Assembly: GCA_963825135.1 (NCBI GenBank)
Contig: CAWGRW010000009.1
Location: 2,080,001 to 2,144,000, forward strand
DNA: 64,000 nucleotides
Origin: an uncultured bacterium
GTDB taxonomy: Bacteria > Desulfobacterota_D > UBA1144 > Nemesobacterales > UBA2774
Reading direction: 5' to 3'
Shown here in pieces: positions 27,001-33,000 of the stretch (position 1 is its first letter; each line of letters opens with the position of its first letter). The position numbers were made by a program.

Positions 27001-30000
27001 GGTTATGATCCCCAGGAATTTATCGGCAGTGATATATTTGAGCTGATCTACCCGGAAGACCGTCCGGCGGTGATGGAGGTATTTCAAAAGATTATTAATA
27101 CCTCGACCTCGGGACACGCCGTATACAGGTACCGGCACAAGAACGGTGACTGGCTCTGGTTTGAAGCTACCGGCAGGCCATACGTAACTATGGGCGGTAA
27201 GACGCGGATACTCATCTTCAGCAGGGAAATCACGGAGAGGAAGAATGCCGAGGAAGCCCTCAAAGAGACGCTCGGCCAGCTCTCCAGGAAAAACAGATAT
27301 GAGACTATAATCAGCGCGGTTACCAGGAGCGTTCACCAATCGACGGACCTGGAAAACGTGCTTGAAAACGCCGTCCAGGCGATATTCGAGAACATAGAAA
27401 AGGCCGATAGCGTATCTATTTATTTTGTAGAAGGGGAGGAAGCCGTTCTAAAAGCGCACAGGGGTTATGTCGACTGGTATATAAAGAGGGTAGCCAGAAT
27501 CCCATATCCCCGCGGATACGCATGGAAGGTGATTATGGATGAAAATCCGAGGTATTGCCCGGATACGGAGATGGATACCGTGATAGGGCCCGCGGGAAGA
27601 GAGTTAGGAATAAAATGCTATTTGTCCCTTCCGATCCTTTATGCGGGTAAGACTATAGGTACGATAAATATTAACTCGTTCCAGAAGGGGGCGTTCGATG
27701 AGGAGGAGCTGAAACTCCTCGAGATAGTGGGTGATCAGATTTCGGTCGCGATAGGTAACGCCAGGCAGAAAGGGGCGCTCCAGGAAGCGATGTCCGAAGT
27801 TGAGCTGCTAAAAAAGCGGCTTAAGAATAATAAGCTCTTTTTGCCCGAGGAAGAAACGCGCGAGCTGCATTTCGAAGGGATCATAGGCAAATGCTCTCCG
27901 CTGCGCAAGGCGATGTTCATGGCGGAGCGGATCGCTCCCACGGATTCTGCAGTGCTGATCAAGGGCGAGCCGGGCACGGGCAAGCATTTATTCGCGGAGA
28001 CTATTCACAGGATGTCTGTGAGGGCCGAAAACCCTTTCGTGAAAATCAACCTTAAGGGCCATGAGGGAGGCCTTGCCGAGGTTCGGATGTTCGGGTTTGA
28101 AGAAAAGGGTGCCGACAGCACCGCTATTTCCCTTTCCGTAGGCAGCGTGGAGCTCGCAAATAACGGCACTGTATATATTAAAGATATCAGCGGGTTGTCC
28201 ATAAATATACAGAGAATACTATTGTCCATATTACAGGAAGGGGAGTTCGTTCGTCCCGGCAGCTCGCGTGCAATTAAAGTGAATGTCAGGGTCATTGCGG
28301 GGACGAACGGGGAACTGGAGAAGTCGGTGGAGGACGGACTATTTCTCGAAGACCTGTTTCATGAGCTCAGCGGGTCTCAGATTATACTACCGCCGTTGAA
28401 AGAGAGGTTGGAAGATATCCCACTTCTTGCCCAGCATTTCTTATTAAAGCACGGTAAAAAGCCCGGGAAGGAATTGAAATCCATATCACAGCATCTGCTG
28501 GACAATTTTGATTCTTATGATTGGACGGATAACGTCAGGCAGCTCGAAAGAATAATAAAAGACGCCGTTGCCGCATCCGGCACCTGAGGGCCGGGAATAG
28601 TTTAAATGAAGAAAAATTATAGGAACCTGAATCAGGCGCTTCTTACAGCGCTCATGACTTATTCCGGGAGAATTTGTTACAAGTCCAAGCGGGAGGGAGA
28701 GTTCCGGGATATATCGTTCGGGGATTTTAAGAAGCTGGTCCTCCGGTTGTCGGCATATCTTCTCGGCAAGGGGTTTGAACCCGGGTCGAGAGTAATAATT
28801 TTTTCGGAAAATTCGCCGGAGTGGATGGCTGTCTGTATAGCGTCCCTGTTTTCAGGCGGGATTGTCATTCCCGTAGCCGCGAATTCCAAGCCCGAACTAT
28901 TGAACCGCATACTAAAAGATTCATCGGCGTCGCTAGTGTTCGTGCAAAACGTTTTTCAGGCGGCCGGTGTCGGGAATATGTGTGAGAACAAACCTTCTAT
29001 AATAGTTATGGAGGATATCGACGGAAGCGGGGATCGGACGATGCACCTCACTTCTATTGGTAAAGGCTCAATTACGGAGGAGGATGTCAAAGCGGTAAAG
29101 ATACGCGCCGAGAGCGTAAACCCGGAATCTACTGCCCTAATTTTCTACACCGCCAAAGAGACAGGGGTTCCGAGGGGCGTCGTGTTCTCACACGGCAGGA
29201 TGCTCGATACACTCACCCACGTTTCGGAATGGTTTGGTCTGGACGAATTCGACCTGGGGTTCACATCTACGAACTGGAGCAATTTCCAGAGTTTCGTGAT
29301 CGCCCTCGAATACATATATTCAGGCATTGGGAATGCGCTCTCCCAGAGCATAGATACCGTATTCGAGGACCTTCAGCAGACGAGTCCCACTGTCACCATG
29401 ACAAGCCCATTTGCCCTGGAGTATATTCACAGACGAATTATGCACGAGCTTGACGAGATGCCTGAGTCGAGGCGGAAAATTTTCCAGTGGGCGCTTGCAC
29501 TTGGAAGGCAATACCGCTCCGAGGAGTCCACGGCGTCAAAGGAGCTGCGTGAGCAGTATACCCGCGCAGATATGGCATTTTTCGGGAGGATGAGGGCGAT
29601 ACTGGGAGGGAGGCTCCTGCGGATTTATTGCGCGGGTGCTCATTTGTCGAGGGAGCTCGCCGGTTTCGCCGAGGCCATAGGACTGTTGCCCCTGAACGTT
29701 TATTCAATCGTTGAGGCTGGCGGCTTTCCTGCCTTGAGCCGCCCTTACGCCCGCAGGATGGGTTCCTGCGGTCAGGTCGCTCCGGGTTTCCAGATAAGAA
29801 TCTCGGACGAAGGCGAAGTCCTGGTGCGAGGAGAAACGGTTTCCGCCAGTTACTGGAACTCCCAGGAGCAATATGAGAATCTCTTTGACAGGGACGGGTG
29901 GTTCCGTACCGGAGATTTGGGGAAGTTCGACCAGGACGGGTATCTGTTCCTGACCGGTCATAAGGAGTCAATTTTCCTCCTGTCAAACGGCCATAAAATC

Positions 30001-33000
30001 GTACCGTCCAAAATTGAGAACTATATCGCGGACAACCCCTTCATAACGCAAGCCCTCGTATTCGGCGAAGGTAAATCCTATGTGTCTGCTTTGATCGTTC
30101 CGAATTTTCAGGTAATCGGGGAATATCTAACCGCTTATGAATCTTCACAACAAAACGGCGACATGCCTATCGATACGTTTAATCCGGCGGTTAAGGCGCT
30201 CATAGATAAAACGGTCTCGGATGTAAATAATCAGCTGAACGTGTGGGAAAAGATACAGGCGTATACGATGATCGATAAGCCATTCAGCGGGTATGGTTCG
30301 GATTCGGCGGAGCTCGAAAGGAGCGACCGGGCCGAAGTTCTAAAGAAATACTCGCTCTATATCAACGCTATGTATCCCGACACCCTCAAGATCGATAACG
30401 ACGATATAAAGCTCGTGCAGCTCGATCCCGACCAGCTTCGCGACCTTCTCGAAAAGCAGGACATTCTGACCGCATGGATGGAAGAAGCCGGCATCGGGTT
30501 TTTGCTGGATCTCGCGCGTTCCAAAGGCATTGACGCACTATCCATGGTGAACATTTGCGAGACCGCGACCAGCATCGCGCAGATGCAGAGCGAGGAAAAA
30601 CCTATATCCACCGCTCTTATCGTTGGCGATCCGACGCACATATCCAGCGTGCTGCCCGACGGGGAGATACAATTTCACCGTTTCGATCATATAAGGCGTA
30701 TGCAGCAGGTGGTTATCGCCCTGGCGAAAATAGTCGACGGTGTGGTGCTGGGTTACGGGATAGATAAATACGGGTATCTGAGGCGTGTCCATAAGCTGGA
30801 AATAGATGCGGATGGTCCGTCTAACTTTCTCCTGGGTCCGCAGTTCAGGAAGCATGCCGCGATATCGAGCAAGTGCGATGCGATTGTATTCTATGTGCCG
30901 GTAGGCGGCAGGCAGGTGCGGGTATTTTCGGACGGGCAGATGGTCGCGAGGTATTCGAACGGGAACTGGATGGCCGAGAACTTTCCGCACATCGACGAGA
31001 CCGTCGAAAGGCTTGCTCTCAAAAAGAGCTATGACGTCGAACTCCTGAGGCGAATTTTTCGTTGTGCTTTCCTGATGTCGGAGAGGAACCTGGGAGCTAT
31101 TTTCGTTGTCGGTGAGTCTGATAAAATATTGAAGAAGTCGGACCCTCCTGAAATAAGCCCTTACGCGACGATAACCAATGCTTATATAGGCAAATTGACG
31201 GACAGCGAGATAATAAATTTTGCGAAACAGGACGGGGCGACTATAATAGATTCGGCCGAAGGCGCGTTTCGGGGCTGTATGGTACTTCTACGTCCCAGCG
31301 CCGATACCCAGGCGGAGATAGGGATAGGCAAGGGCTCGAGACACTCGAGCGCGTCAAAAATGAGCGCAGAGGCGGGGTGTCTTGCAATCACTGTATCCCA
31401 GGACGGTCCGATCACCGTGTACGACAGCGGGGAGCGTATTATGACCATATAGATTGGACCGGCTCACTCTGATTTCTTTGAGTGAGACGGTATCCGGCGG
31501 CCAAGCAAAAAAGAGCCTGAAATATTATTAAAGTTGACGGCAGGATTTAAATAAGTTAAAATACAGTTAAGGTTGCAGTAGTTCTTGTCAAATGTAAGAT
31601 TACCATCTGAAAGCGATTTTGAACCACTTGCATAACCCAATTTAAAATAGGAGGTAGCACCCTAATGGCAGAACGTAAAATTGGCACTGTAAAGTGGTTC
31701 AATTCTACAAAAGGTTTCGGTTTCATTGAGGTAGAGAACGGCGAAGACGTTTTCGTACATTACAGTGAAATTAAAGCGACCGGCTTCCGCACGTTGGAAG
31801 AAGGTCAGCGCGTAGAGTTCACCGTTGTAAAGGGACAGAAAGGTCCCCAGGCTCAGAATGTAGTACTGGCTTAACGGAAAAAATTGGTGAGCCGGATACC
31901 CCGGCTCACTTCTTTCCTTTTATTAACCCCTGTCTACTCAAAAGCTCTTATGCTTCCGATCTTAAACTTCTGGTTTCCGGTGATCTGATTAAATTCCACC
32001 CGGCTGTTTACGTTCGGGATCTCGGGTTTGAAGGCGAAGTTCGTTATAGGCTTTCCGAAAATCAAGTCTTTTATCAGGGCGATGAACTGCGGTGACTCGG
32101 CCATGTTCTTATAGGTAATCACAAGCTTCCTCGGGACCGGGCGTTTGCCGTCTTCGATCCAGATCTGCCAGTCAATATCCTTCTCGACGAATACCAGATG
32201 GTGGCAATTCGTGCCCATGACCTTGCTTAGACCAAAATAGGCCCCGGAAATAACATCAGCTGTCATTGCCTTGTACGTATCTATAAAAAGAAACTCGCTC
32301 AGAGCGGGGGTAAACTGATATTCCTCTTTCAGCTTATTCAGTGCCTGGTCTACAGAAGGGGGAAGCGTCGCGAGTGAGAAATCGTTAAGCGGCACTTCAA
32401 GGAGCGTCGCCTGTCCTGCGTCATACCAGAGTTTGTATCCCCCGAGGTCGGTTATATATCCCACGTAAAATTTATCCGGTTTCTTGAGGTATACGGTTTC
32501 TTCCGCGTTGTATTGAATCTTCTGTTTGGATTCCAGCACATCGTCGAACATCATTTCCGCTTTAAATGTATATTCATATTGACTGCCCATATAGTAGCTC
32601 ATGGCCTGAAGGACGGCTGCAGCCTTAGGGTCTATATTCGGATTCGCATCCTGGGCGTTGGCGCTAACCTGCAGGAACAACGAGCCGTAGCCCGCAAATA
32701 ATACGGCAATGAATATATAGAGTGAGATTGAACTCAGCTTCTTTGGTAAACAGTGTGCAGCTCTAATCATAATACCCCCTCCTTTTTCCTTGTGGTAAGC
32801 CCGCATTTTATTTTTGTAAAGCTTCCCAGCAGTTTATACAGTATCATAATTCTTTCACGGTTTTCAACCTTCGGCCATAGAGTCCGGACAGGATACCGGC
32901 TATCCCCTCGTTACGACCTTCGTCTGCGGGGACTATTAGAACTCTTCCGGCACCATGCCTGATCTGAATCTATTCTATTGACTGTATTGACATAAAATTG

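Follow-up and report, generated by a model that had tools for sequence, protein, structure and literature searches.

Within the window, the whole 64,000-nucleotide stretch of DNA that was analysed, positions 28606..31452 of the forward strand form a single open reading frame that starts with ATG and encodes a protein of 948 amino acids (Table 1). Three Pfam domains are found in this one chain, as the first-pass annotation had reported with closely similar E-values: AMP-binding (E 2.5e-39, 135.6 bits) and AMP-binding_C_3 (E 1.1e-10, 42.3 bits), both above their curated cut-offs, and DAC (residues 824-943, E 2.2e-13), which at 50.3 bits also exceeds its cut-off of 27. The database version of the window's own protein (P0002) has 932 amino acids and begins at Met17; because residues 1-16 are conserved among homologues (an N-L-N-Q-A block), we regard the ATG at 28606 as the better start. 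The linker that follows the ligase-like (ANL) module has no Pfam match, and its long helices occupy residues 17-37 of the modelled piece and 5-25 of the mid-domain model. The GC content of the gene matches that of the flanking DNA.

Table 1. Features of the fusion gene and of the gene directly upstream; positions are those of the window.
Feature	Position	Strand	Residues or length	Basis or description
Upstream partner, PAS-GAF-PAS-GAF-AAA+ (sigma-54-activator-like)	25915..28587	+	890 aa	Pfam, sequence
Whole gene	28606..31452	+	948 aa	ANL-like module, helical linker, DAC', catalytic-looking DAC
ANL N-terminal subdomain, degenerate motifs	28666..29856	+	21-417	PF00501
ANL C-terminal subdomain	29971..30378	+	456-591	PF23562
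Helical linker	30379..30489	+	592-628	Long helices in AlphaFold2 models
DAC', second, catalytically degenerate DAC fold	30490..30978	+	~629-791	Predicted model and profile comparison
Catalytic-looking DAC domain	31000..31449	+	799-948	PF02457

The C-terminal DAC domain looks catalytically competent, judging from its sequence. A predicted model of this domain aligns with DisA, CdaA, CdaS and CdaM at Z 13.3-16.8 over 120-140 residues, and the family shares with these enzymes the catalytic fold, the DGA, the G-x-R-H and the Ser. The motifs DGATIID and GSRHSSA are present in the protein as quoted earlier. In an alignment of 110 family members, D876-G877-A878-T879, G910, R912-H913-S914-S915-A916, S931 and D933-G934-P935 are invariant, while at position 932 a Q stands in 96 members and an H in 14; an alignment to 7y0d places the VSH of active mycobacterial DisA where the family has VSQ or VSH. 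What distinguishes the family from the four known enzymes is a Ser as the third residue of RHR: the full motif is absent, with RHS in 110/110 members and RHT or RHA in stand-alone relatives. Since every member carries it, RHS is a fixed family trait and not decay. According to a preprint, D, G, G and R are the sole positions that do not vary among about 1200 DACs (PMC13640721), and all four are present here (D876, G877, G910, R912). In one published mutagenesis, the whole RHR triplet was exchanged for AAA, not the final Arg by itself (PMC3328451). With every universal DAC residue kept, synthesis of c-di-AMP from two ATP is the most likely activity, though the product is not certain because some DAC enzymes (PanS) are reported to produce cUA (10.64898/2026.08.10.743927). 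Five genes of the genome have a DAC match, the number given before, and the quoted motifs are present in their ORFs (CdaA, DGGIII / GTRHRAA; a 201-aa DAC protein, DGAFII / GSRHMAA); the second Arg of RHR is missing from four of the five. No PstA/DarA-type receptor was found in this genome, which is 94% complete.

The domain directly before the catalytic-looking DAC is, according to its predicted model, a second and degenerate DAC fold, which we call DAC'. Modelled by itself (pLDDT 84.7, pTM 0.83) and compared with 48,161 solved chains in an unbiased search, it has only DACs as its six best matches, at Z 10.2-14.0, and the next match falls to Z 5.3. The best is 2fb5 (Z 14.0, 138 aligned, rmsd 2.7), followed by 7y0d (Z 13.1), 3c1y (12.8), 7dg0 (12.0), 8ofj (11.8) and 9g69 (10.2). 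A PK_C-like DacZ_N identity was considered for this domain and rejected: the structural matches are all DACs, no pyruvate kinase occurs among the 49 rows of the search, and the DacZ Pfam models (DacZ_A, DacZ_P and DacZ_T; PF21754, PF21755, PF21756) have no match at the locus at E<=10. At the level of sequence, the DAC' profile matches the 201-aa DAC of the same genome (E 2.5e-7), and hhalign with the protein's own DAC indicates modest homology (probability 52%, E 1.4e-4, 133 columns). Among 1.84 billion representatives the profile has 116 matches at E<=1e-3, some of them on the canonical DAC of two proteins (P0311 and P0307), and profile matches to DACs of the PDB are weak (E 0.011-0.87). D711 is kept in 109 of the 110 members and G712 in all, and the catalytic RH and Ser-Glu are lost, with QF aligned to RH and P-x-G-G to S-E.

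The ANL module retains the fold of a ligase, with degenerate catalytic motifs. Its phosphate loop at residues 181-192, YTAKETGVPRGV, aligns with ...YTSGSTGKPKGV... of a solved adenylation domain, and the A3 stretch reads TAKETGVPRG. The canonical A3 loop, defined as [ST][STG]G[ST][ST]GxxK, occurs in none of the 110 family members, in which Glu, Lys or Asp replaces the central Thr. The A4 His is absent (Y in 46, E in 32 and N in 14 of 110), and the A10 column, which lies in a variable region of the alignment, holds K in 52, R in 23, E in 11, T in 6 and S in 4, with Arg in the 948-aa protein. Two residues that contact adenosine/ribose are kept, the A5 Glu (E370) in 105/110 and the A7 Asp (D437) in 110/110. 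Eight full-length ANL paralogues from this genome were aligned for comparison: each has A5, A7 and A10, and seven have a strict A3, the eighth having the near-variant SGTTNRPKG. The loss of the A3 loop and the A4 His, together with loss of the A10 Lys in half of the family, argues that the module is most likely a ligand-binding pseudo-enzyme that serves as an input domain, rather than an acyl-adenylate-forming enzyme.

Of 8000 candidates scored, 300 proteins count as homologues at E<=1e-3 (315 clusters in the first-pass annotation), and the triple-domain layout, once attributed to all of the best 120, does dominate them, with PF00501, PF23562 and PF02457 together in 116 and lengths of 874-996 aa in 111. 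Of 21 genomes of close relatives, 6 carry a family member, a patchy distribution. Conservation is unevenly spread along the chain: mean identity to the 948-aa query is 0.45 for the ANL N-terminal and 0.40 for the C-terminal subdomain, and 0.67 for DAC' and 0.68 for DAC; columns at least 95% identical make up 9%, 7%, 34% and 39% of these parts, respectively. DAC' is thus about as strongly conserved as the live DAC domain. Elsewhere the DAC'-DAC core is found alone or after PAS-GAF-PAS, CBS, HTH (winged-helix), zf-HC2/Lon_C, TPR and other inputs, and in a quick tree two PAS-GAF forms fall within the starred set of 26 ANL forms, with the stand-alone Chloroflexota forms outside the ANL clade. These sequence comparisons mark the DAC'-DAC pair as a portable output module with interchangeable inputs.

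The gene directly upstream adds a further sensor-like protein. Its stop codon lies 18 bases 5' of the cyclase ATG, and the two genes are probably co-transcribed in this lineage. The partner has no DNA-binding domain (HTH_8), its chain ending past the AAA lid, and two motifs are degenerate: the GAFTGA loop reads KGADST, and the Walker B D-E reads IKDI. Six orthologues have the same degeneracy, and three canonical relatives retain GAFTGA, Walker B and HTH_8. The partner stands directly upstream on the same strand in seven loci (L006, L008, L009, where it is cut, L010, L011, L013 and L014), and its N-terminal PAS-GAF-PAS is fused straight to DAC'-DAC in L015 and L017. Across 77 loci, the recurrent neighbours are Ser/Thr kinases, PP2C phosphatases, histidine kinases, AAA+ sensor proteins and ABC ATPases; no lipid-metabolism genes are among them.

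A degenerate ligase-like domain and a degenerate DAC placed before an apparently working DAC make the protein probably a signal-controlled c-di-AMP synthase and not a ligase. We lean, on balance, towards a putative cytoplasmic, sensor-controlled diadenylate cyclase of three modules. The C-terminal DAC would most likely be the catalytic unit, joining two ATP into c-di-AMP when a pair of these domains is brought face to face. DAC', an old degenerate copy of the DAC fold, would most likely act as a built-in regulatory partner that may occupy or shape the face through which the live domain dimerises, or bind nucleotide. The ANL module would most likely sense a ligand and not form acyl-adenylates, and the PAS/GAF/AAA+ partner, which has no transcription-factor features, would probably deliver a second signal to the cyclase. 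Heterodimeric class III nucleotide cyclases combine one live and one degenerate site; the likeness is that of a live domain paired with a degenerate copy in one chain, possibly with a regulatory pocket, although their fold is unrelated to that of DAC'-DAC. Compared with the known diadenylate cyclases, the family lacks a transmembrane (CdaA), HhH (DisA) or helical YojJ (CdaS) regulatory part and instead carries an ANL-like module plus an additional, degenerate DAC fold.

The first-pass annotation had instead described a complete ligase-like enzyme, active as an acyl-adenylate or CoA ligase, whose binding or adenylation of a substrate would control c-di-AMP synthesis and link it to fatty-acid or acid supply. 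The module does have the full two-subdomain ANL layout with the long insertion typical of FadD11 / FAA1-type long-chain acyl-CoA synthetases, the NCBIfam FadD11 model spans residues 30-592, residual or altered chemistry is conceivable with A5, A7 and half of the A10 Lys residues kept, and the acyl pocket may still bind ligand. However, unlike those synthetases the module has neither a phosphate loop nor the A4 His, and this protein has also lost the A10 Lys; with FadD11 it scores 178 bits, far short of the cut-off of 950, the ANL module evolves far quicker than the cyclase part, and PAS-GAF-PAS takes its place in close relatives. With signalling genes and not lipid genes around the 77 loci, we consider an active ligase improbable, and the proposed tie to lipid or acid supply is not borne out. 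A reading that deserves more weight, doubtful as it is, holds that the DAC domain makes another nucleotide, such as cUA or a linear pppApA formed by asymmetric pairing of DAC' with DAC, or that it binds nucleotide without catalysis. The invariant RHS, the precedent of PanS, the potential asymmetry of a dead-plus-live pair and the weak PDB sequence matches would all fit; against it, the residues reported as universal are invariant, the active-site motifs are under strong purifying selection, and DS-2C, of similar dead-plus-live layout, reportedly makes 3'3'-c-di-AMP (10.64898/2026.08.10.743927).

That layout also invites comparison with anti-phage defence cyclases of the CdaG/DS-2C or PanS kind. 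CdaG/DS-2C (DACNG-DACNH-DAC, in CBASS-linked anti-phage operons) has a distant relative of DAC, without catalytic residues, directly before a live DAC, as the preprint describes, citing Galperin 2023 (PMC13640721), and the patchy occurrence of our family would suit such a role. A defence function is nonetheless highly improbable: PADLOC has no match for the 948-aa protein, the Pfam DACNG and DACNH models (PF21752, PF21750) match nothing in the genome at E<=10 and nothing in residues 592-823 when these are scanned directly, the recurrent neighbour families include no effector, CD-NTase or 2TM-beta, and the GC content is that of the surroundings. The family differs further in its ANL-like input, in its signalling neighbours and in DAC' being a full-size DAC fold of ~160 aa, as against the 107 positions of the DACNH model. 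The DacZ-type label first given to this protein, which as in DacZ/CdaZ would imply a PK_C-like regulatory domain, is hardly credible. NCBIfam DacZ (NF041371) is the best named match to the DAC part (E 5.9e-11), but the match is confined to profile positions 145-264 of 270, with 42.2 bits against a cut-off of 430, and the family has a DAC fold in the middle instead of a PK_C-like N-domain, in line with the fold matches and silent DacZ models described above.

The sensor-controlled cyclase that we favour belongs to a fusion that is real, conserved and widespread, as was first claimed, and that is hidden under ligase names, its homologues being called 'AMP-binding protein', 'long-chain acyl-CoA synthetase' or, once, 'diadenylate cyclase, partial'. 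In the literature searched, which did not cover the Galperin 2023 survey, only unrelated papers were found that link diadenylate cyclase with ligase terms, as had been noted, and none on a DAC domain together with an acyl-CoA synthetase. Apparently unstudied in that literature, the family is widespread among bacteria, where its members, putative sensor-controlled diadenylate cyclases, are annotated as ligases.

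The protein under study (g02033, 948 aa) is encoded by a single ORF on which Pfam places three domains above cut-off: AMP-binding at residues 21-417 (E 2.5e-39), AMP-binding_C_3 at residues 456-591 (E 1.1e-10) and the diadenylate cyclase domain DAC at residues 824-943 (E 2.2e-13). The database's own gene call is 932 aa, but homologues conserve residues 1-16, and we therefore keep the ATG at 28606 as the start. A Pfam search of the ORFs extracted from the host genome (3.13 Mb, 17 contigs, 94% complete) gave five proteins with DAC matches, namely this one, CdaA (291 aa), a CdaA-like protein (400 aa), a 201-aa protein without any other domain and a DACNK-DAC protein (392 aa). 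The first-pass annotation had reported the ORF, its three domains and five cyclases, all of which we confirmed, and the DAC motifs it quoted agree with the extracted ORFs. Two of the other cyclases, both outside the window, merit a remark. The 392-aa protein has the same DAC subtype as the 948-aa protein (DGATFF, GTRHTSA, VSEDGP) and a Cys-rich C-terminal tail of the form CxxC...CxxC, and among the 21 relatives searched it was seen in its own genome only. The 400-aa protein combines CdaA_N with a DAC of motif RHA and a C-terminal extension that weakly matches YbbR (E 0.017); its length of ~400 aa is conserved among relatives, and it may be a CdaA fused to a CdaR-type regulator. The PstA/DarA receptor (PF06153) was not found in this 94% complete genome.

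Positions of the cyclase gene, its neighbours and related loci (C9, a contig of the same genome; L numbers, homologous loci in other genomes)
Feature	Location	Strand	Description
Cyclase gene (g02033)	window 28606-31452	+	948 aa, ANL-DAC'-DAC
Partner gene	window 25915-28587	+	890 aa, PAS-GAF-PAS-GAF-AAA+; 18 bases upstream of the cyclase gene
LOG/SLOG-type protein	window 22687-23457	-	'lysine decarboxylase-like'
DUF6607 protein	window 23599-24918	-	
DUF2092 protein	window 31934-32806	-	periplasmic
DACNK-DAC protein	C9:150412-151590	-	392 aa
CdaA-like cyclase	C9:1346044-1347246	-	400 aa
PAS-GAF-PAS + DAC'-DAC fusion	L015:3363-5720		785 aa
PAS-GAF-PAS + DAC'-DAC fusion	L017:384-2747		787 aa
Tandem ANL-DAC'-DAC copies	L020:131-6023		Chloroflexota
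Tandem ANL-DAC'-DAC copies	L034:3-3756		Chloroflexota
Tandem ANL-DAC'-DAC copies	L045:4334-10199		Chloroflexota

Between the ligase-like (ANL) module and the catalytic domain, residues 592-823 gave no Pfam match at E<=10. Aligned by hhalign with the protein's own DAC part, the middle part reached a probability of 52% (E 1.4e-4, 133 columns), and a profile of 36 middle domains (alignment A2) matched the genome's own 201-aa DAC at E 2.5e-7, placing V-D-G over the D-G of DGA, GPQF over GSRH and VPxGG over VSES. Against 1.84 billion representatives, the A2 profile gave 116 matches at E<=1e-3, some of them falling in CdaA-like proteins, on their canonical DAC domain. We modelled the middle domain by itself with AlphaFold2 (pLDDT 84.7, pTM 0.83) and searched the model, with no pre-filter, against 48,161 solved chains; the top six matches were all DACs, led by 2fb5 (Z 14.0, 138 aligned, rmsd 2.7) and followed by 7y0d (Z 13.1), 3c1y (Z 12.8), 7dg0 (Z 12.0), 8ofj (Z 11.8) and 9g69 (Z 10.2), with the seventh match at Z 5.3. 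Searches of PDB sequences gave only chance TrkA matches for residues 592-948 with phmmer, and weak matches to DAC chains with a profile (E 0.011-0.87). Our family alignment holds 110 full-length members, that is, the 948-aa protein (P0001) and 109 listed matches of 900-1010 aa, after exclusion of P0002, a duplicate of the window's own protein, and 10 matches of <900 aa. In it the middle domain keeps D711 (109/110), G712 (110/110) and an R748-x-H750 pair (R748 in 100, H750 in 108), and lacks RH and Ser-Glu at the aligned positions. By profile and model comparison, the middle domain is a second, degenerate DAC fold, which we call DAC' (residues ~629-791). Models for DacZ_A/P/T (PK_C-like), DACNH, DACNG, DACNV, DACND and DACNK found no match in the middle domain or at the locus; the DACNK model matches another DAC of the same genome, so Galperin-derived models were among those searched.

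The C-terminal DAC (residues 799-948) looks catalytically alive, a prediction drawn from its motifs and its model. The model (pLDDT 85.5, pTM 0.75) resembles DisA, CdaA, CdaS and CdaM at Z 13.3-16.8, and DGAT, G910, RHSSA, S931 and D933-G-P are invariant in 110/110 members. A 2026 preprint (PMC13640721) reports D, G, G and R as the sole fully conserved positions across ~1200 DACs, all four of which are present here. Members carry VSQ or VSH where an active mycobacterial DisA has VSH. The family has Ser for the second Arg of RHR, and the RHR mutagenesis described in PMC3328451 changed all three residues together. Some DACs are reported to make cUA (10.64898/2026.08.10.743927), so the product of this family's DAC is not certain.

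The ANL fold is complete, but its motifs make canonical adenylation by this module unlikely. The canonical A3 phosphate-loop pattern occurs in 0/110 members, the central-Thr column reading E in 63, K in 34, D in 8, Q in 3 and G in 1; in the 948-aa protein the region is TAKETGVPRG, which phmmer aligns with TSGSTGKPKG of a solved adenylation domain. The A4 His column likewise holds Y (46), E (32) or N (14), and the A10 Lys column K (52), R (23) or E (11), with Arg in the 948-aa protein, while A5 Glu is kept in 105 members and A7 Asp in all 110. Among full-length ANL paralogues of the same genome, A5, A7 and A10 are kept in 8/8 aligned and the strict A3 pattern in 7/8, the eighth having SGTTNRPKG. 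At 178 bits, FadD11, the best NCBIfam model for the module, stays below its cut-off of 950. Identity to the query averages 0.45 and 0.40 in the N- and C-terminal parts of the module versus 0.67 in DAC' and 0.68 in DAC, and columns at least 95% identical make up 9%, 7%, 34% and 39%, respectively; by these measures the ANL module is faster-evolving than the cyclase part. Since A5 and A7 are retained, the module may still bind a ligand, adenosine-containing or other. Annotation of these genes as ligases is likely mistaken, and metabolic reconstructions should not count them among fatty-acid-activating enzymes.

With residues 560-948 as query, 300 of 8000 scored candidate proteins matched at E<=1e-3. 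Among the best 120 of these 300, the C-terminal part is 57-100% identical, 116 have the full set of three Pfam domains and 111 have lengths of 874-996 aa. Scanning a single genome per species gave 77 loci, the nearest in Thermodesulfobacteriota/Dadabacteria (92%), with many in Anaerolineae and Caldilineaceae, at several copies per genome, and others in Acidobacteriota and one Ignavibacteriales genome. Several MAGs hold 3-4 copies on separate contigs, and tandem copies occur in Chloroflexota, where the listed ORFs overlap by ~50 bases. Frames of this type were present in 6/21 close-relative genomes, and the gene is therefore accessory. When we counted architectures in the 76 locus ORFs spanning at least 300 residues of the DAC'-DAC core, 68 had the ANL module, two had PAS-GAF-PAS, three were stand-alone (L072, L073, L075) and three were cut or unclear (L021, L056, L065).

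Such comparisons of domain order indicate that the DAC'-DAC core is a portable output module. It occurs alone (342-367 aa) in Chloroflexota and after PAS-GAF-PAS in loci L015 and L017; in 31 proteins taken from the A2 matches and scanned with Pfam it also follows zf-HC2 with or without Lon_C, ArsR/MarR-type HTH, TPR, AAA_21/SMC_N, PRTase-CE+TPR, a CBS pair, FGE-sulfatase and CHAT, two of the 31 giving no Pfam match. A large group of ~640-690 aa (P0252, P0255-P0258, P0260 and others) joins an anti-sigma-type zf-HC2 and a Lon_C-like domain to DAC'-DAC, another cyclase architecture without a model. Our tree came from a quick search with very long outgroup branches and is read only for the ANL clade and the PAS-GAF nesting: the ANL forms group into a single clade (support 98), both PAS-GAF forms sit inside a starred set of 26 ANL forms, adjoining the window's own clade, and the stand-alone forms fall outside the ANL clade.

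In the Dadabacteria/Thermodesulfobacteriota group, 7 loci have the partner directly upstream of the cyclase gene. The partner is sigma-54-activator-like, lacks a DNA-binding (HTH) domain, and has KGADST in place of GAFTGA and IKDI as its Walker B. As these losses are common to 6 orthologues, while three canonical relatives retain all three features, the partner has the look of a pseudo-ATPase without a role in transcription. Partner residues 11-448 have their homologous counterpart in the N-terminal 450 residues of the L015 and L017 proteins. A deletion between adjacent genes is the probable origin of these fusions, which would link the partner functionally to the cyclase. Recurrent neighbours of the Chloroflexota loci belong to signalling, namely Ser/Thr kinases (within 5 kb in 14/77 loci; Pkinase in 5/5 members scanned), PP2C/SpoIIE phosphatases (3 members scanned), a hybrid histidine kinase with receiver domain and ABC ATPases, with no lipid genes among them. 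PADLOC gave no match for the 948-aa protein. The LOG/SLOG-type, DUF6607 and DUF2092 proteins flanking in the window have no evident link to the cyclase.

The first-pass annotation described a 'DacZ-type' cyclase fused to a complete acyl-adenylate-forming enzyme, with c-di-AMP synthesis gated by binding or adenylation of a carboxylic acid. The cyclase, with its live-looking DAC, stands; canonical adenylation is unlikely given the A3 loop. We found no support for 'DacZ-type': the middle domain has a DAC fold in which the PK_C-like DacZ_A/P/T models find no match, and DacZ is the nearest model for the catalytic domain only, with a score of 42 bits where the cut-off is 430. Of the layouts described so far, the DACNG-DACNH-DAC order of CdaG/DS-2C comes closest, and that enzyme is reported to make 3'3'-c-di-AMP. 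Our family departs from it in its degenerate domain, which the DACNH model does not match, in having an ANL pseudo-enzyme as input and in a context of signalling instead of defence. Galperin 2023 (PMC10127676, doi 10.1128/jb.00023-23) is reported to cover 22 families; all its new domains have a Pfam model and DAC' has none, which suggests that the tandem DAC'-DAC nature is not described there. On balance we lean towards a putative c-di-AMP synthase under sensor control, in which an ANL-derived input is joined to a DAC core of one dead and one live copy. A more detailed and rather improbable proposal has DAC' and DAC pair within the chain as an asymmetric pseudo-dimer, one site being catalytic and the other a regulatory nucleotide site, with the ANL pseudo-enzyme sensing a ligand of adenylate type, for example AMP, acyl-AMP or pApA; such an asymmetric pair might even release a product other than c-di-AMP. 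If true, this second-messenger synthase would follow a new design, its live enzyme being controlled by two different dead ones.

c-di-AMP governs potassium/osmolyte balance and cell-wall homeostasis, and to our knowledge it has been worked out in just a few classes of cyclase how its synthesis is turned on and off. The ANL-DAC'-DAC family, which is common among Chloroflexota, Dadabacteria/Thermodesulfobacteriota and Acidobacteriota and often present in multiple copies per genome, would add an ANL-fold pseudo-enzyme as a signalling input domain, together with a broad 'dead-plus-live DAC' output core, as yet without a Pfam model, that is wired to many different sensors.
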